Origin: a phage
Length of the DNA stretch: 64,000 bases
Reading direction: 5' to 3' (one strand)
Sequence record: PZ386980.1
Every line of letters starts with the position of its first letter. Positions within the stretch are counted from its first letter, which is position 1. The notes beneath the pieces are model-generated. The model had not been told where the DNA came from and did no database searches. It saw only the letters and a list, made by a program, of their open reading frames with translations. A program made the position numbers and the translations under genes. Shown piece after piece: positions 23,293 to 30,866 of the stretch.

Positions 23293-23682
23293 TTAATCCA
23301 AAATATTATTAGGCATTGGTTGAACACTCACAAGTTCTTTAAAGAACTCAGTAGAGTCAGGCAATTTAACCATTTCCGGAGCATGCTTACTGAATTTATG
23401 TTTACATTGACGGCATTTATATTCAAGCTCTGGTTTACGCCAGTTAATCAATTGAACTTGTTCAGTACCGCATTCAGGGCAATTAGGAACGTTTTTAGAA
23501 GCTCTTTCACGTCGTTCAACCATAGCCATAATAGCATCCCATGCTGGAGGTTTAAAATCTAAATCGTCGCAGCCGTGAATCTTTCCACGCATTTCCAAAT
23601 CGTCTTCTTCACCAGCCATAATAATTTTAATTAGACTAGAATTACTTGAAGCTGCAATGTCTTCTAATAAACGCTTTTTCAT
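23293..23682 (-). CDS. zinc-ribbon protein
   Basis: 129 aa with CPECG...CRQCKHKF four-cysteine ribbon. Confidence 0.5.
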
Positions 23683-24605
23683 TTCAATACCTCAATAGCA
23701 TTACGTAAACCATTTGCTTTGGCGGTTAAAGCCTTAAGAACTTTAGTATGCTCTTCAATCTGTTTTTCAACTTCAATCAAACGGGCACTGAGATATTCGC
23801 GTTCTTCTTTCATAGTATCATTTCCATGATTGGATTTTGGTGTAGGTTTAAATTCACTAGGGTCCTTTAATTTAATAACAAATTTAGTTTCAAACAGTGA
23901 AAGACCATAATTCGTATTATCATCAAAGGATTTGACTACATCCATATCAGATAATAACACGCGCAAATTATAAGCCAAAGAACTAATAGTTTCATTGTGT
24001 TTATTAGCTTCGCGTGGTTTCATATACGGAAGATTTTTATATATCTCATGCGGAGCGCAAACGATAATTGACAATTCAAATTGTCCATTCTGGGACGATG
24101 GAGTGAATTTAGCCGTAACCCAGTCTTTTACATTCACATTAATAGTACGGTTATCACCATGACAAAACAGTCTACGAGAATGCTTAAAAAGCATATTCAC
24201 GTTATTATTGAATTCGTGTGAAAATTCACTAGCAAATTTTTCTTTACTATCTTTAGAAAACCATTCTTCTAAATAAGTTCTTTTCACGTCGTTAATAATA
24301 TTAAATGTAACAACACTAGCATTTGATACATTAGTCTCAATGTAGCTTGGATACATAAATTTTTTAATATTATTAACAGCTATCACAGAAGATAGTAATC
24401 GGGAACGTTTGAACCACTCGAGCAAAGAACCAAGAGAATGTGAATACGCATTTTGTGTATCTTTACAAATATGGTTTTCCCATCCAATATAGTCTAAAAA
24501 ATCACGAAGAATATTATTGATTACTTCTCTATGTCCTTTCTGATAATCACGATGTTTAGTAATAAGACTGTCAAAATAATCAATATAATGTTTACGAGTT
24601 TTCAT
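23679..24605 (-). CDS. paralog family member 1 (N-terminal MKTRKHYIDYF, C-terminal coiled coil)
   Basis: 308 aa; shares N-terminal motif and FKxSRLLS motif with next gene. Confidence 0.6.
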   Translation of the reverse strand: MKTRKHYIDYFDSLITKHRDYQKGHREVINNILRDFLDYIGWENHICKDTQNAYSHSLGSLLEWFKRSRLLSSVIAVNNIKKFMYPSYIETNVSNASVVTFNIINDVKRTYLEEWFSKDSKEKFASEFSHEFNNNVNMLFKHSRRLFCHGDNRTINVNVKDWVTAKFTPSSQNGQFELSIIVCAPHEIYKNLPYMKPREANKHNETISSLAYNLRVLLSDMDVVKSFDDNTNYGLSLFETKFVIKLKDPSEFKPTPKSNHGNDTMKEEREYLSARLIEVEKQIEEHTKVLKALTAKANGLRNAIEVLK

Positions 24606-24659
24606 GTTCTTCTCACTTGGTTAATGATTTATACTCCGAGCCATCCTTGGCTTTAAATT

Positions 24660-25661
24660 TTACTTAATTAACTGTAAAGCTTGTTCCAGACGATCAAGAC
24701 GATTAACAGATTCTTCCCAAATCCTTTTAGCCTGCTCATATTCTTTCTGTGCTTTATTAGAAATTTCTAGAACTTCTTTATAAGCTTTTTCTAGTGCAAT
24801 AACTTCTGGACGAATTTCTATCGGTTCAGGTGAATCATCAAGATTATCCATTAGTTCCTCAAGGGTAGTTTCTTCTTTAGGAGTATTCACAATTTCATCA
24901 CATTTTTGTTGATAAATTTCTTTATCAGTAGGTGAGTACGCGCACTTTACTTCACGAAGACTAATTACAATTTTATATCCTTCCCAACCACCCATATTTT
25001 TGAAAGGATATGTATGAATACTTTTTACAGTTTCCATACAATCCAAAGCCGTCTCTAATTGATGAGTTATAGTGCTAGCAATTGAGAAAAATTTATTAAT
25101 ATTCTTTTGGTTAGCTTCTGGTGTAAAAAATTCGTAATTCACAAAAATAGCTACTTTATTTTTATCAAGCTCATATTCTTTTACGATAATCATATCAGAA
25201 GCCAAAGGATGAATTTGACGATAATCGCCATAACATAATTTAGAAGCTGATTTTAGAATTTGTCCTTTAAAAAGTCTGAAATTGCTAATCCAACGACGAG
25301 TAAAAATATTCTTAGGGTCTTCTTTGATATTAAGATGATAAGAATTAACATCACCGAACCAATTGTATCCTATTACACCTTTAGTTCGTTTAATTTCTTT
25401 CCCAAAATTACCAAGAATATCCCGATTAACCAAATATGAAAGAAGACGAGACCCTTTAAAGATTATCTTAATATCATCTTTATCTACACGGCTAGAAATT
25501 TCACGAACTTCATGAATAAATTTACTGGAAGAAACAATACTTGCATCAATACTGCTGAGCCATTGATTGATAATAGAAAGAACAGCGTTCTGACTAGACA
25601 TGGGTTTAACTTTATCATCAATAACACTATTGAATGATTTGATATATTCGTTACGAGTCAT
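24660..25661 (-). CDS. paralog family member 2 (start at MTRNEYIKSF)
   Basis: Promoter placement requires internal Met start; C-terminal coiled coil. Confidence 0.6.
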   Translation of the reverse strand: MTRNEYIKSFNSVIDDKVKPMSSQNAVLSIINQWLSSIDASIVSSSKFIHEVREISSRVDKDDIKIIFKGSRLLSYLVNRDILGNFGKEIKRTKGVIGYNWFGDVNSYHLNIKEDPKNIFTRRWISNFRLFKGQILKSASKLCYGDYRQIHPLASDMIIVKEYELDKNKVAIFVNYEFFTPEANQKNINKFFSIASTITHQLETALDCMETVKSIHTYPFKNMGGWEGYKIVISLREVKCAYSPTDKEIYQQKCDEIVNTPKEETTLEELMDNLDDSPEPIEIRPEVIALEKAYKEVLEISNKAQKEYEQAKRIWEESVNRLDRLEQALQLIK

Positions 25662-25689
25662 AATAATCTCCTCAGTAGAAAGTAAGAAC

Positions 25690-25719
25690 ATTATACCACA
25701 TCCTTGTGGTAAAGTAAAC
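25690..25719 (-). promoter_or_regulatory. early promoter (GTTTAC -35, TATAAT -10)
   Basis: 18-nt spacer; lies between paralog 3 and paralog 2. Confidence 0.5.
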
Positions 25720-26744
25720 TAGTTCAGTGCATTTAATGCATTGTTCAGTTTAGAACGTTGCTTCGTGAGATTTTTGACTTTTTCTTGTGCTTTTTCTAGC
25801 ATCTTTTCAGCTTCTAACACTTCATTGGTCGCTTTAACGAGTTCATCATCTACTGCCTTGATAGACTTCTCAATCGCATCCGCGTGCCATTTTTCAACAG
25901 GTTTAAGACTCGGATTTTCAATAGGAAGAAAATTCACTTTATTGAATTTCCATGCATCCTTATTACCTGAACTATACATCCAAAATTTAGGATCGTTTGA
26001 TGAGTAATTGGATAAATTTAAATTTAAGTTATCTTGCACTTCCTGCTTCTTCTCTTGCGTGACTTCGTCCTTTCTCAAAAAATCATATTTAAATGAAACA
26101 ATCATATCAAGTTCATATGTTGTTGTGTCTAATTTAAATCGTTCGAAATGCTGTGAAATCTTAGACTGAACAGCGGCAACAACATCCATATACTTAAATG
26201 CTTCTGTCAACTGTGATTTAAGGCATTCACAAATTGAAAGAGAATTTTTTGTATTAGGTTTAAAGCTAATTCGTGCAGTTCTATTATTTTCTTTTAATGG
26301 TCTTACTTCCATCTGAAGAGTATAACCATCAAATTTCAAGTTCTTTAAGTTAATATCAGAACCTTTTAATCGACTAGCAGTTGATAAAATTTGCTTTAAT
26401 TGTCTACGGAACAGAGCAATAAATCTCCATTCAATACGATAATGATTTGGATTGAAAAATCCAGATGATAAATCGACCTTACTCTGACCAACACCTTGAA
26501 CAAATAGAGGATTTTTATAATCAATAGTTTTACAGAAATCGGTGAGCTGCTCACGAGCAGTCATTTGTGTAATATATCCCGCTTTACTAAAATGACGTAA
26601 CCATTCACTGCTATTCATATACTTAAAGTGAATGGAACTATTAACTCTATCAGGGTCTAAATTATTTTGGCACAAAAATGTCATAACATCACGAGTATAG
26701 CTGGCATTACGAACCATATCTTCAATTTGAGAACGAGTTTTCAT
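25719..26744 (-). CDS. paralog family member 3 (N-terminal MKTRSQIEDM, C-terminal coiled coil)
   Basis: 341 aa. Confidence 0.6.
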   Translation of the reverse strand: MKTRSQIEDMVRNASYTRDVMTFLCQNNLDPDRVNSSIHFKYMNSSEWLRHFSKAGYITQMTAREQLTDFCKTIDYKNPLFVQGVGQSKVDLSSGFFNPNHYRIEWRFIALFRRQLKQILSTASRLKGSDINLKNLKFDGYTLQMEVRPLKENNRTARISFKPNTKNSLSICECLKSQLTEAFKYMDVVAAVQSKISQHFERFKLDTTTYELDMIVSFKYDFLRKDEVTQEKKQEVQDNLNLNLSNYSSNDPKFWMYSSGNKDAWKFNKVNFLPIENPSLKPVEKWHADAIEKSIKAVDDELVKATNEVLEAEKMLEKAQEKVKNLTKQRSKLNNALNALN

Positions 26745-26752
26745 AGTGTTCC

Positions 26753-27658
26753 TTAAGATTTAAGTAAATCAACAATTTTAATTAATTTTTCACGCTCAGA
26801 TTTAGCTTTATTACTCAATCCAGATAGTCTGAAAATTTCATCGTCATACTGTTGAATAGAAATATTCAGCTCTTCAATTTGCTTATTAAAATAATCAATT
26901 TGCTCAGAATGTTTTTCGTTACTACGAACTGGTACAGGGTTTGTAGGCAATTTAGTTAAACTGGATTCATCCGGGCGATAAATTAAAATGCAATTTGAAC
27001 CAATCGGGCATTTAGCACCAGATGAATATTCTAACGTTCCAGCTTCTTTTAAAACTTCAAAAGCTAAACAGAGATGATGCCCCATATTAACATAATCTGT
27101 AGAGTGAGCTCTGACGTAATAATCATCTCCACGAGTACTAAATTTAAAGCATTTAAGGTCTTCTGTATTATTAGTTTTAAAAATCATTTGTTTATCTAGA
27201 CCTTTAGCCAATCGAGCACCTAATGCTAATAATCGTCGTTGATTTTCCCACAAATCCGCAATCATTTGATCGAATGACAATTTCGGCATTAGTCGACCAT
27301 AAAGGTCATATCCTTTATTATAATTGCGAAGAATTTCACTCGCGTTAATGCGAGACAATGCTCCAATTTTATTAAGGGCTTTCATGATGCGATTAGATAA
27401 ACTCATTCCAGACCCATTTGTTCGCTGTAAATGTTTTTCTAATCCAAACCCAATATCAACTTTAAATTTATCTAAAATTTCAGCATGAACATCTCTGTCA
27501 ATAACATTCAAATCCAAAGTTGGGTTAAATCTATGAAAAAATTTATCTGGCTCTCCACGACGAAATACAGTCCATTCATTCATCATTTTTTTATTAACTA
27601 AAGATTTAATTACTGCATTGACATTATTAATTACTACTGACATATTTTTCTCACTCAA
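26753..27658 (-). CDS. divergent member 4 of same architecture (C-terminal coiled coil)
   Basis: 301 aa; similar size and C-terminal heptad-repeat tail. Confidence 0.5.
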   Translation of the reverse strand: MSEKNMSVVINNVNAVIKSLVNKKMMNEWTVFRRGEPDKFFHRFNPTLDLNVIDRDVHAEILDKFKVDIGFGLEKHLQRTNGSGMSLSNRIMKALNKIGALSRINASEILRNYNKGYDLYGRLMPKLSFDQMIADLWENQRRLLALGARLAKGLDKQMIFKTNNTEDLKCFKFSTRGDDYYVRAHSTDYVNMGHHLCLAFEVLKEAGTLEYSSGAKCPIGSNCILIYRPDESSLTKLPTNPVPVRSNEKHSEQIDYFNKQIEELNISIQQYDDEIFRLSGLSNKAKSEREKLIKIVDLLKS

Positions 27659-28059: not shown

Positions 28060-28114
28060 AATAATCTCAATTAAAAGGGCTTAGAACCATTATACCATCC
28101 TTGGTATAAAGCGG

Positions 28115-28642
28115 TTATGCGAGTACCGTCTTTAACCGTTCTTCAAACTTCCGAAGAGTATTCTGGCGTTCAGCTCTTTGCTTTTTGTAAGTTTCAATAC
28201 GCTCTGAAATGAGATTGTATCGTTCATTTACTGTTTCTTTCATAAAATCAGGAATTTCACGAGAAGCTTTAATCTCGTCAAATTTATCAATAACAGCTTG
28301 CTCTTCAGCAATTAAGTTATCATACATCAAAATATCTTTCTTGATGAACTCAATATCTTCTTGAGTTACACGAGATAACTTAGATGCTTTATCCTTTTTG
28401 TACTGTTCGTTAGTATCACGAGACCAGTGTAATGTACGATTTTTATTCGTATTCTTGTAAATTTCTACAATACCAATCTCATCGATAATAACGATCCAAT
28501 TCCAACGGGATTTGTAAATTTGTCCTCCATCAACAGTGATTTCACCACCGATTGAGACATCATTAAAGAACTTGCTTTGAGCTTCAGATTTAAATTTACC
28601 ATCATTGTAGTTTACCAAGTTGAAAATATCTTTAGCATTCAT
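28115..28642 (-). CDS. hypothetical protein
   Basis: 175-aa ORF directly downstream of early promoter. Confidence 0.55.
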   Translation of the reverse strand: MNAKDIFNLVNYNDGKFKSEAQSKFFNDVSIGGEITVDGGQIYKSRWNWIVIIDEIGIVEIYKNTNKNRTLHWSRDTNEQYKKDKASKLSRVTQEDIEFIKKDILMYDNLIAEEQAVIDKFDEIKASREIPDFMKETVNERYNLISERIETYKKQRAERQNTLRKFEERLKTVLA

Positions 28643-29087: not shown

Positions 29088-29807
29088 TTAGGATTCTTCT
29101 AAATGTCTTTTCTGAAAAGTTGATACCATACTACGATACGGTTCATTTGGATATCCGTGTTTTATAGCTTCCTTTGTAAATTTTCTCCATCCATATTTAG
29201 TTTCTTTCCAAAGCTCGAATAATTCATCTTCATATTGCCATATAGTTAAATGAGAACGCTTTGCAGCTTTAATTCCATTAATATGCTTTTCTTTTACTAC
29301 AGGATTGCTTAGTTTCTTTTTAATAATATTACTAACTTTTCTAACAAAAACTGGGTCCTTATATCGTTGCGAAGTTTTTATTGAAGTGTTTAATTTAGCT
29401 TCCGGCGTGGATGTGACCTCTTTCATCTTTTTCTTCATATGCTGTATATGATTAGGATTTTTCCATAAATTTATAGAATGCTTTTTGCATTTTATCCTAG
29501 TTTCATCTGCAACCTTTCCTCCTTCACCCCCGTATGACAGGTTAACACAGTTTTTTCCATATTTCAATTTACCTGCCATGATATATAATATTTCAGCTTG
29601 TACCATTTTATCATAATTATCAAAAACTTCTAAAACCGTTTTTGATAATATGTGGTCATTTGACACTTTTACACGTTCTATATAATTTCCACTACCAACA
29701 TACGAATCATTGATGTTATTAGTTATATGTCGACCATAATAGTATTTCTTAATACCTGTCTTTAAATTTAATATTTCAGTTTTATAGATAGTAAAATATT
29801 TTTTCAT
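29088..29807 (-). CDS. GIY-YIG (Seg-like) homing endonuclease
   Basis: N-terminus FTIYKTEILNLKTGIKKYYYGRH..SYVGSG fits GIY-YIG; basic NUMOD-like C-terminal tail. Confidence 0.65.
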   Translation of the reverse strand: MKKYFTIYKTEILNLKTGIKKYYYGRHITNNINDSYVGSGNYIERVKVSNDHILSKTVLEVFDNYDKMVQAEILYIMAGKLKYGKNCVNLSYGGEGGKVADETRIKCKKHSINLWKNPNHIQHMKKKMKEVTSTPEAKLNTSIKTSQRYKDPVFVRKVSNIIKKKLSNPVVKEKHINGIKAAKRSHLTIWQYEDELFELWKETKYGWRKFTKEAIKHGYPNEPYRSMVSTFQKRHLEES

Positions 29808-30772
29808 TTTAATAATACCGTTTCAGCGATTTCTTCCCAACCGTTTTTGTCGGTCATAATAAAGTCAGCAAGATAAAGTGCAGTACGCAGTGAAACATTA
29901 CGTAAACGATTAACATTGACTTTCATCCATGATAATGCTTTATAAGTTTCTTCATCAGAAAGACCGCGCTTTTGCATCATGTCGGTTGAAAGAATAACAT
30001 CTTCAACCCTGACCATAATTTCTTCATTAGTGTGAACACCCAAATCCAAATAAACTGAGCGGGACACTAATGCTTGTAAATGTGGAGCAAGTTTAGTACC
30101 ACGGTCTAATTCGCGGTCAATGTCAACGTTTGTGATAAAAACAATCGTTCCTTTAAATTCAAACTCACGCTCAATGCCTTTTTCTTCTAAGTAAGAAGAT
30201 GCGGTGCTCCAGCAGACTTTACGGGTCTCTCCAGTGTCCAGAGCAGCTTTCAGAAGATTAAGAATGTCCATATCAGAGAAAACATCCACATCATCAATCA
30301 AAAGGACAGAATTCTCTTCACGATTATTCCAAAGCTGTTCATAAAGACCAATACCAGAGATTTTACCATTAATGCTTTTATACTCAATGTATCCAATATC
30401 ATTTGCTTTATTTAAAGCTTTATCTAAAGAATACGTTTTACCAATACCTGCTGCTCCCGAGATAATTAATGAACGAATGTTTCCGTTAATAATACCATTC
30501 GTCATCATTCCCATAACATTAAATCTTTTATTAATGCGGGTTTTCATATCTTCATACGATTCTTTAACTTCTTCAACTTTTACACCATCATATGAAATGT
30601 CTGATTTGTAAACCCAAACACCGCGACGCTTACCGTCAATTTCAACAAAAACTTTACCATCTCCTTGTGCATCTACCGGAGCATTATCTGGGAACCATTC
30701 GCCTAAGAGCTCAAAAGTTCCAGAGATTTCTTTACCGAAGTAGATACCCTTATTGATAGTTACAGTTTTCAT
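29804..30772 (-). CDS. AAA+ family ATPase
   Basis: Walker A GAAGIGKT, Walker B LLIDDVD; start set at MKTVTINK (GGAG SD) because the upstream ATG precedes the promoter. Confidence 0.65.
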   Translation of the reverse strand: MKTVTINKGIYFGKEISGTFELLGEWFPDNAPVDAQGDGKVFVEIDGKRRGVWVYKSDISYDGVKVEEVKESYEDMKTRINKRFNVMGMMTNGIINGNIRSLIISGAAGIGKTYSLDKALNKANDIGYIEYKSINGKISGIGLYEQLWNNREENSVLLIDDVDVFSDMDILNLLKAALDTGETRKVCWSTASSYLEEKGIEREFEFKGTIVFITNVDIDRELDRGTKLAPHLQALVSRSVYLDLGVHTNEEIMVRVEDVILSTDMMQKRGLSDEETYKALSWMKVNVNRLRNVSLRTALYLADFIMTDKNGWEEIAETVLLK

Positions 30773-30806
30773 TTTATTCTCCAAATCTGTATCAGTTGAT
30801 AGTTGT

Positions 30807-30836
30807 ATAGTACCATAAAGCTTTATGCTTGTAAAC
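30807..30836 (-). promoter_or_regulatory. early promoter (GTTTAC -35, TACTAT -10)
   Basis: Member of dispersed promoter repeat. Confidence 0.6.
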
Positions 30837-30866
30837 AACTTTGTGAAAAATTTTTGAAATAAAAAA

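Follow-up and report, generated by a model that had tools for sequence, protein, structure and literature searches.

The nrdC.3-nrdC.6 array of a T4-like phage: a divergent paralog family and candidate inhibitors of host immune sensors

No lytic phage has been studied better than T4, and still about half of its genes are without a function. A question of this kind is raised by a 64,000-nt stretch of phage DNA (sequence record PZ386980.1; this whole stretch is called the window below), which holds a tandem array of four genes of similar layout. Are these genes related to each other, and what do they do in the infected cell? The initial annotation of this DNA, made from the sequence alone, had described four consecutive minus-strand genes here, and the list of open reading frames (ORFs) confirms them at 23679-24605 (308 aa), 24660-25691 (343 aa), 25719-26744 (341 aa) and 26753-27658 (301 aa), where 343 aa and 301 aa are mechanical ORF lengths and not lengths from the likely starts. 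Over 5.7 kb around the array, the DNA is 100% identical to that of phages RB51 and RB68 and 95-97% identical to that of several hundred further Tequatrovirus genomes. The matching genes of RB51 and RB68 are annotated as nrdC.3, nrdC.4, nrdC.5 and nrdC.6, all hypothetical proteins. The gene order of the region is nrdC.10 - mobD - nrdC.9 - nrdC.8 - nrdC.7 - nrdC.6 - nrdC.5 - nrdC.4 - nrdC.3 - nrdC.2 - nrdC.1 - nrdC, the same as in T4 except for mobD, which is unannotated at this place in the T4 record.

Relationship among the four proteins

Several lines of evidence make it very likely that all four genes are homologous. BLASTP among the four proteins is significant only for nrdC.3 and nrdC.4 (24% identity over 266 aa), and profile comparisons were therefore needed. 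Using profiles of single families, hhalign gave 98-99% probability for nrdC.3-nrdC.4; nrdC.4-nrdC.5 was borderline at 53%, and nrdC.6 yielded almost no signal. The 250-400-aa ORFs between nrdC.10 and nrdC were catalogued across T4-like loci, with the conserved neighbour NrdC.10 as an anchor, which gave 30 diverse loci, against 2 loci with nrdC.3 alone as the query. At this place every genus has one to four genes of 250-400 aa, and each of their proteins ends in a helical tail. The last 55-60 residues were stripped so that coiled-coil composition could not drive the profile matches. A tail-stripped jackhmmer search from nrdC.4 pulled in nrdC.3 and nrdC.5, and more iterations added nrdC.6-type and single-copy proteins. 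A first comparison of the jackhmmer nrdC.4 profile with nrdC.6 (98.6%) was discarded, since the nrdC.4 profile had itself taken up sequences of the nrdC.6 family and the test was circular; disjoint sets were used instead.

Between these disjoint tail-stripped sets, hhalign connects the nrdC.3/4 group with the nrdC.5 group at 94% (E 9e-8, 180 columns) and with the nrdC.6 group at 81% (E 1e-5, 84 columns); the nrdC.5 and nrdC.6 groups match each other at 64% (E 6.6e-5, 62 columns). Families that occupy the same slot as single-copy genes act as bridges, matching the nrdC.3/4 group at 94% (E 1.1e-7, 141 columns) and the nrdC.6 group at 95% (E 4e-8, 169 columns). Reversed-sequence controls (n=12) did not exceed 0.3% (E 0.2-0.8), and other ORFs of similar size from the same loci gave no profile links to the family. 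The alignments are collinear and centred on two helices, GxhS/TR...L and W...hL..[GA][AS][RK]L..G. The former is the same as the SRLLS motif of the initial annotation, which had noted FKxSRLLS in the first two array members; it is indeed present at aa 65-72 of nrdC.3 and aa 68-75 of nrdC.4. The diversified paralog family proposed there is thus upheld, with tail-stripped probabilities of 81-98% (save for nrdC.5-nrdC.6) and of 94-95% via the bridges, although plain BLASTP would recover nrdC.3/nrdC.4 only. The near-identical N-termini also claimed are an overstatement: nrdC.3 and nrdC.4 align from residue 1-3, but all that nrdC.5 has in common at this end is MKTR, and its homology begins near residue 30-48. 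The real shared signal consists of central core helices in the family and a C-terminal end motif in nrdC.3, nrdC.4 and nrdC.5.

Each of the four proteins is built from a variable N-domain of alpha+beta type, which spans about 225-255 aa and is basic (pI 8.9-9.6, net charge +5 to +12), a flexible linker and a heptad-repeat C-terminal helix. The idea that they could be DNA mimics was rejected because the N-domains are basic. The linker is low-complexity or acidic, as seen in nrdC.6 at 228-243, where the predicted local distance difference test score (pLDDT) falls below 50, and in nrdC.4 with its EELMDNLDDSPEPIE. The heptad-repeat tails reported in the initial annotation are recovered by a scan for a/d periodicity (nrdC.3 270-308, nrdC.4 281-333, nrdC.5 282-341, nrdC.6 248-296). 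AlphaFold2 agrees for the two proteins modelled: nrdC.5 has a confident helix at 282-340 (pLDDT 74-93), and the nrdC.6 model (pLDDT 76, predicted template modelling score 0.64) has a helix-turn-helix at 246-272/278-295. A stringent C-terminal heptad test is passed by 3 of the 95 ORFs of the window, all three being array members; the nrdC.4 tail passes a looser 28-residue test only. The tail is the best-conserved block in every orthologue comparison. In nrdC.3, nrdC.4 and nrdC.5 it ends in [KR]L-x-x-A-h-x-x-L-[KN], and an ending of the form L-x-x-[AS]-h-x-h-h, typically KLxxAhxxLK, lies within the last 20 residues in 11 of the 15 subfamilies and in none of the 337 non-member ORFs of the same loci.

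Predicted structure and gene position extend the family to other genera. The order of predicted secondary-structure elements is identical in nrdC.5 and nrdC.6. In a Foldseek search, the nrdC.6 model matched 304-335-aa proteins (E 1e-6 to 1e-3, TM 0.38-0.49, 9-16% identity) of Enterobacter phage IME523, Pectobacterium phage PM2 and Acinetobacter phages Acj9, fHyAci03 and Acj61. Synteny was confirmed in the two phages checked. PM2_092 lies directly upstream of nrdC.2 in PM2, and Acj61p120/p121, both of them Foldseek matches, form a tandem pair between nrdC and nrdC.10. In addition, in 24 of 26 T4-like loci the stop of the last array gene and the start of nrdC.2 overlap by 1-16 nt, usually as ATGA. 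This overlap is kept though six different subfamilies occupy the slot and therefore gives positional evidence for common descent. Judged from gene overlap, it also suggests that translational coupling between the array and nrdC.2 is conserved, and NrdC.2 is possibly a functional partner of the family.

An alternative is that only nrdC.3, nrdC.4 and nrdC.5 are paralogs and that nrdC.6 is unrelated, with a C-terminal coiled coil of independent origin and an architecture that is partly convergent. Consistent with this, nrdC.6 has no BLASTP or single-family hhalign signal to nrdC.3 or nrdC.4, forms its own family in both PHROGs and Pfam, carries the variant tail end KLIKIVDLLKS rather than the strict motif, and evolves slowly, being as conserved as its neighbours within Tequatrovirus. 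However, the disjoint profiles reach nrdC.6 from both other groups and, at their highest, through bridge families that are themselves tied to nrdC.3/4, far above the reversed controls. The aligned segments are collinear and contain the helix LALGARLAKG / STASRLKG / KSASKLCYG that is shared across the family. In a local hmmsearch of 13 sequences, Pectobacterium PM2_092 was matched by two profiles, that of nrdC.6 (E 9e-9) and that of nrdC.5 (E 4e-5). Foldseek pairs the nrdC.6 model with slot proteins from other genera, and the predicted secondary-structure order of nrdC.6 is that of nrdC.5. We consider an unrelated nrdC.6 improbable.

Besides the tail end and the slow evolution of nrdC.6, three other observations weigh against a four-member family. 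First, the direct profile probability for nrdC.6 is 64-81%, and the rest of its link is transitive. Second, the AlphaFold2 model of the nrdC.5 N-domain, made from its own shallow alignment, is unusable (pLDDT 43) and therefore allows no direct structural comparison of the paralogs. Third, a HMMER search of 1.84 billion proteins with the nrdC.3/4 profile returned 9 cluster representatives and did not reach nrdC.5 or nrdC.6; the family is therefore narrow, and HMMER alone cannot join its subfamilies. The picture that we favour is one very divergent paralog family, confined to T4-like phages (Straboviridae), in which nrdC.3, nrdC.4 and nrdC.6 have only about 10-25% identity to nrdC.5.

Antagonism of Dsr1 and a candidate function for the family

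The published work on T4 NrdC.5 provides the clue regarding function. An evolved T4 deletion mutant no longer plates on Escherichia coli strain ECOR17, and deletion of dsr1 in ECOR17 restores plating (PMC9391042). Cloned dsr1 protects MG1655 against the T4 deletion mutant, and plasmid-expressed T4 nrdC.5, supplied in trans, restores plating of the mutant on MG1655 with the ECOR17 dsr1 (PMC9391042). Dsr1 is a SIR2-type NADase, that is, a defence protein that depletes nicotinamide adenine dinucleotide (NAD+), and it is overcome by T4 NrdC.5 (PMC9391042). Srikant et al. (2022, eLife 11:e79549; PMC9391042) called nrdC.5 an early gene. According to a 2026 preprint, a phage major capsid protein triggers the tetratricopeptide repeat (TPR) sensor of Dsr1, a sensor that Avs7 and thousands of other defence proteins also have (PMC12803255). 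The trigger is a late protein, which fits an inhibitor that is made early. No later paper on the NrdC.5 mechanism was found in a literature search. NrdC.5 of RB51 is 93% identical to that of T4 over 342 columns and occupies the same genomic position, with the order nrdC.6-nrdC.5-nrdC.4 as in T4.

The anti-defence role suggested in the initial annotation is therefore backed by published experiment for T4 nrdC.5, while for nrdC.3, nrdC.4 and nrdC.6 it is something that we infer. The locus had also been called a candidate uncharacterised system, which cannot be kept, because the role of NrdC.5 against Dsr1 was published in 2022 and the locus is thus not wholly uncharacterised. Nor is it a new kind of system, since these are long-annotated hypothetical genes of a model phage, one of them with a published anti-defence role.

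In our view the array probably encodes modular stoichiometric inhibitors of host immune sensors, which is supported for one member and extended to the other three. The array genes would be transcribed early from T4-type early promoters, one of them inside the array. The proteins would act as non-enzymatic, stoichiometric inhibitors of host immune proteins, and each variable N-domain would engage one particular sensor or effector of host defence ahead of the synthesis of the late phage proteins that trigger it. By analogy with the phage protein DSAD1 and its target DSR2, the N-domain of NrdC.5 may bind Dsr1 directly, plausibly on its sensor. The tethered conserved tail may supply oligomerisation or a shared docking function. 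NrdC.3, NrdC.4 and NrdC.6 may target other defence proteins or other alleles. Consistent with the absence of a catalytic motif noted in the initial annotation, searches of the four proteins against Pfam, NCBIfam, PADLOC and the PDB gave no meaningful match to a catalytic family, a defence model or a solved structure.

A thioredoxin or glutaredoxin identity was considered and rejected, as none of the four proteins has such a match in Pfam or NCBIfam. Many GenBank homologues of nrdC.3-nrdC.6, as well as of nrdC.1, nrdC.2 and nrdC.7-nrdC.11, bear the label 'thioredoxin', and in phage Manna almost the whole region does. Its likely origin is the 'nrdC.x' form of the locus names.

The way in which the array genes evolve bears on their function. 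Between Tequatrovirus and Mosigvirus or Dhaka-type phages, identity is 84-91% for NrdC, 78-79% for NrdC.10 and 68-85% for NrdC.8, against 25-58% for the four array genes. NrdC.10 is still 64-67% identical in Acinetobacter phages, where the slot proteins are unrecognisable by sequence. The gene-wide ratio of nonsynonymous to synonymous substitution rates (dN/dS) is 0.2-0.34 for nrdC.3 and nrdC.4, 0.09-0.20 for nrdC.5 and 0.08-0.16 for nrdC.6, compared with 0-0.14 for the conserved neighbours nrdC, nrdC.1 and nrdC.8-nrdC.10. Within Tequatrovirus, nrdC.3 has two allele classes (window 23800-24380; L010, L005, L015), which are 83-100% identical in the N-terminal 75 residues and the tails and only 37-57% identical in the central stretch of about 190 residues. 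The second class resembles the Mosigvirus allele. At the level of sequence, this suggests that the central cassette of nrdC.3 has been exchanged between genera. The single-copy gene of Karamvirus has similar allele classes.

Presence and absence across T4-like genomes, a check proposed with the initial annotation, shows one to four copies between genera, with deletions and chimeras. There are four copies in Tequatrovirus, two to three in Mosigvirus, three in loci matching JS98/Dhakavirus-type homologues, and one in phages PG7, CC31 and PM2 and in several unassigned viral contigs. Among 50,697 phage records, nrdC.3 is found in 654, nrdC.4 in 554, nrdC.5 in 582 and nrdC.6 in 742, and the carriers were nearly all isolated on Escherichia, Shigella, Yersinia, Salmonella or Citrobacter hosts. 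Salmonella phage Manna (L040 3715-4752) has lost nrdC.5 and carries an in-frame nrdC.6(1-282)::nrdC.4(251-333) chimera joined at a shared DEI. In phage Pinarejo (L041 4501-4641), nrdC.6 is cut down to its last 47 codons. ACG-C40 (L004 5802-6213) retains an out-of-frame nrdC.5/nrdC.3 remnant, the metagenomic P0056 has an nrdC.5::nrdC.3 chimera, Sf25 nrdC.6 (P0058) contains an internal duplication, and in one locus (L013 14382-15414) nrdC.4 is broken into two ORFs. The array is dispensable in the laboratory and plastic in nature, with natural deletions and chimeras. Together with the early promoter within it and its hyperplastic character, this agrees with the early accessory region recognised in the initial annotation.

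These data help to weigh a second alternative, in which the family members are not dedicated to anti-defence but act generally in host takeover or regulation, for example by binding nucleic acids or a host machine with the basic N-domain, and the rescue from Dsr1 is indirect. Such a rescue might come about by altered NAD+ metabolism, by altered timing of capsid synthesis or by lowered expression of dsr1 from its plasmid. The basic character of all four N-domains would suit binding to nucleic acids; the sole functional evidence is a genetic complementation with over-expressed protein; and other phages counter Dsr1 by rebuilding NAD+, not by inhibition. On the other hand, no search revealed a nucleic-acid-binding, enzymatic or NAD-pathway domain in the four proteins. 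The T4 phenotype is specific to hosts with dsr1, as ECOR17 without dsr1 restores plating. Moreover, the genes are dispensable, often deleted in nature and diverge far faster than their neighbours, which is the pattern of an arms race rather than of core takeover functions. We regard general takeover factors as an unlikely explanation.

T4 internal proteins carry the capsid-targeting sequence MKTYQEFIAE and an L/I-x-E cleavage site. A third alternative, that the array proteins are virion-associated or assembly proteins, such as injected internal proteins or scaffold-like coiled-coil proteins, draws on a loose likeness of this sequence to the MKTR at the start of nrdC.3 and nrdC.5. Scaffold proteins can also have long coiled coils, and nrdC.8 weakly matches a head-scaffold PHROG. 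However, beyond MKT there is neither a match to the targeting sequence nor an L/I-x-E cleavage context, and the genes lie in an early leftward transcription region behind early promoters; the idea of an injected internal or capsid-targeted protein was rejected on these grounds. Furthermore, a plasmid copy of nrdC.5 is functional inside the infected cell, phages can do without the genes, and Pfam and PHROGs searches matched none of the four to a structural-protein family. A virion role is very improbable.

For the inhibitor reading that we prefer, there are also points on the other side. The evidence of function concerns one gene of four, in T4 and not in RB51, and consists of one complementation in one paper. 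The rescue from Dsr1 by NrdC.5 could be indirect. Gene-wide dN/dS is raised yet below 1, and positive selection is not demonstrated by it.

A more specific scenario, which we put forward tentatively and hold to be possible rather than probable, is that one ancestral slot gene, translationally coupled to nrdC.2, expanded in the T-even phages to up to four modular inhibitors. Their N-domains would be tuned to different sensor clades, and the tail would be a common module for oligomerisation or docking, maybe in concert with NrdC.2. One set of candidate targets would then be the widespread capsid-sensing TPR sensor of Dsr1, Avs7 and relatives with other effectors. If this were true, NrdC.3, NrdC.4 and NrdC.6 would add three members to the known anti-defence proteins, and their targets could be defined.

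Early promoters, gene models and neighbouring genes

The coordinates of the features are collected in Table 1. An early promoter inside the array had been noticed in the initial annotation, and it proves to be well founded: the sequence gTTTACTttaccacaaggatgtgGTATAAT at 25718-25690 of the minus strand fits the T4 early-promoter pattern, as TTTACT-N17-TATAAT. The 64-kb window contains 5 matches to this pattern, against 1.3 expected. The spacer can form a stem-loop with a 7-bp stem, ACCACA/TGTGGT (-8.2 kcal/mol). Promoter-early stem-loop (PeSL) elements of the T4/PST type, in which the spacer of TTTACW-N17-TAYWAT holds a stem-loop, have been described in hyperplastic regions of T4-type phages (PMC4122927). 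Two degenerate copies lie at 24622-24655 and 28078-28115, the latter probably heading an nrdC.7-nrdC.6-nrdC.5 unit. In all three elements a -10-like box is closely preceded by a short stem-loop whose loop reads AGGA; CCAAGGATGG is common to two of the three. Since the stem-loops fold only modestly (z about -1.6), two of the three elements are called 'PeSL-like' only. Another GTTTAC-N17-TACTAT is found upstream of nrdC.8.

Two gene starts were revised. Going by local sequence context, nrdC.4 probably starts at ATG 25661 (333 aa, N-terminus MTRNEY), because a GAGGAG Shine-Dalgarno sequence precedes this codon, while the upstream ATG at 25691 sits within the -10 box. Similarly, nrdC.6 probably starts at ATG 27643 (296 aa, N-terminus MSVV), because all homologues begin with MSVV; the mechanical start is TTG 27658.

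Table 1. Features of the nrdC.3-nrdC.6 array and its surroundings (window coordinates)
Feature	Coordinates	Strand	Description	Evidence
nrdC.2	23293-23682	-	129-aa zinc-ribbon protein; start overlaps nrdC.3 stop (ATGA)	ORF; weak Pfam match; PHROG match
nrdC.3 CDS	23679-24605	-	308 aa; last array member	100% identical to RB51 nrdC.3; phrog_1435 E 6e-100
nrdC.3 tail	23682-23801	-	heptad/helical tail, aa 269-308, ends LRNAIEVLK	83-100% conserved between allele classes
nrdC.3 core helix	24156-24197	-	equivalent of nrdC.5 core helix	hhalign alignments
PeSL-like element	24622-24655	-	degenerate; between nrdC.4 and nrdC.3	stem AGCCA/TGGCT, then TATAAA
nrdC.4 CDS	24660-25661	-	333 aa from probable ATG 25661	phrog_1435 E 8e-166; homologues with PF26897
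nrdC.4 tail	24663-24815	-	helical tail, aa 283-333, ends LEQALQLIK; acidic linker before it	heptad scan, motif
nrdC.4 core helix	25227-25298	-	equivalent of nrdC.5 core helix	hhalign alignments
Early promoter	25690-25718	-	T4-type, PeSL type, TTTACT-N17-TATAAT, between nrdC.5 and nrdC.4	pattern and fold
nrdC.5 CDS	25719-26744	-	341 aa; orthologue of T4 Dsr1 antagonist	DUF7235 (PF23882) E 2.5e-121
nrdC.5 tail	25722-25901	-	59-residue helix, aa 282-341, ends LNNALNALN	AlphaFold2 helix 282-340, heptad scan, motif
nrdC.5 core helix	26361-26432	-	conserved core helix motif, aa 105-128, EWRFIALFRRQLKQILSTASRLKG	hhalign alignments
nrdC.6 CDS	26753-27643	-	296 aa from probable ATG 27643	phrog_2257 E 1.6e-151
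nrdC.6 tail	26756-26908	-	helix-turn-helix tail, aa 246-296, ends LIKIVDLLKS	AlphaFold2 helices, heptad scan
nrdC.6 core helix	27200-27256	-	equivalent of nrdC.5 core helix	hhalign alignments
PeSL-like element	28078-28115	-	degenerate; upstream of nrdC.7	stem TACCA/TGGTA fused to TATAAT

Some observations on the neighbouring genes may be added. The NrdC.2 protein has 129 aa in RB51 and 104 aa in T4; among close relatives it is 62-99% identical, with lengths of 98-129 aa. Its CxxC...CxxC zinc ribbon has a weak Pfam match, under the gathering threshold, and a PHROG match. A 239-aa ORF at 29088-29807, between nrdC.9 and nrdC.10, lies at the position of mobD; a related phage has it annotated as a homing endonuclease, and only part of the related loci have it. 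NrdC.10 (29804-30838; in Acj61 at L008 40209-41216) is a P-loop protein (GAAGIGKT) and is unusually well conserved for this region. The 175-aa nrdC.8 (28115-28642) has a C-terminal charged helical segment ...TLRKFEERLKTVLA and is the next-best match in the window to the superfamily N-domain profile, at a level that is not significant (E 0.03). In the Acj61 locus (L008 1229-3938), adjacent genes encode a nicotinamide phosphoribosyltransferase and a ribose-phosphate pyrophosphokinase. This gene pair is of the NAD+-rebuilding kind reported to counter NAD+-depleting defences such as Dsr1.

Comparison with known families and systems

Linking the four genes to each other is of use in several ways. 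Three testable candidate anti-defence genes are named in hundreds of coliphages of the therapeutic type. The domain map, with a variable N-domain, a linker and a conserved tail, can serve for dissecting how NrdC.5 blocks Dsr1. The alleles, chimeras and deletions form a natural series for linking phage host range to the defence content of hosts. The link reaches single-copy genes at the same position in T4-like phages of Enterobacter and Pectobacterium, and it extends to those of Acinetobacter through fold and synteny only. Finally, the widespread mis-annotation of array genes as 'thioredoxin' is corrected.

Pfam splits the four proteins into three separate domains of unknown function. The PF23882 (DUF7235) match of nrdC.5 covers the full profile (positions 1-307 of 307), whereas a Pfam search of nrdC.3, nrdC.4 and nrdC.6 gave no PF23882 match at E<=0.1. 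PF26897 is carried by nrdC.4 homologues and also by one mostly nrdC.3-like fragment, and PF26899 is found in all 105 homologues of nrdC.6. In PHROGs, nrdC.3 and nrdC.4 share phrog_1435, while nrdC.5 and nrdC.6 are in separate families. The databases thus keep PF26897, PF26899 and PHROGs 1435, 2351 and 2257 as three unrelated families, which are joined here as one superfamily. The superfamily also takes in single-copy slot genes of Karamvirus-type and PM2-type phages and of other unassigned T4-like contigs; the Acinetobacter phages (Acj61) are tied to it by Foldseek and synteny only. Measured against databases and searchable papers, the union of three families of unknown function into one superfamily across Straboviridae appears to be new. 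The tail-end motif, the nrdC.2 coupling and the catalogue of chimeras and alleles also appear to be undescribed in searchable papers.

The intra-array promoter fits the description of T4/PST-type PeSL elements (Arbiol 2010; Comeau 2014) and adjoins variable genes in a hyperplastic region. The other two copies differ in being degenerate, with poor -35 boxes. No recombination event was traced to the PeSL copies here; in the chimeras examined, the junctions fall on short microhomologies inside the genes, such as DEI.

The closest functional parallel is DSAD1 of phage SPbeta. The available part of its published account describes how DSAD1 blocks the defence-associated sirtuin DSR2: it occupies the sensor domain, and the late structural trigger can then no longer activate DSR2. 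No sequence or fold similarity to DSAD1 was found for the array proteins, and the likeness, as far as that part of the account allows a comparison, is one of functional analogy only and not of homology. The targets also differ: the capsid protein is what the TPR sensor of Dsr1 responds to, whereas DSR2, according to the same source, senses the tail tube. The nearest known system by descent is T4 NrdC.5 itself. Its function is known for the T4 allele, and the other three genes of the array are distant paralogs with the same architecture.

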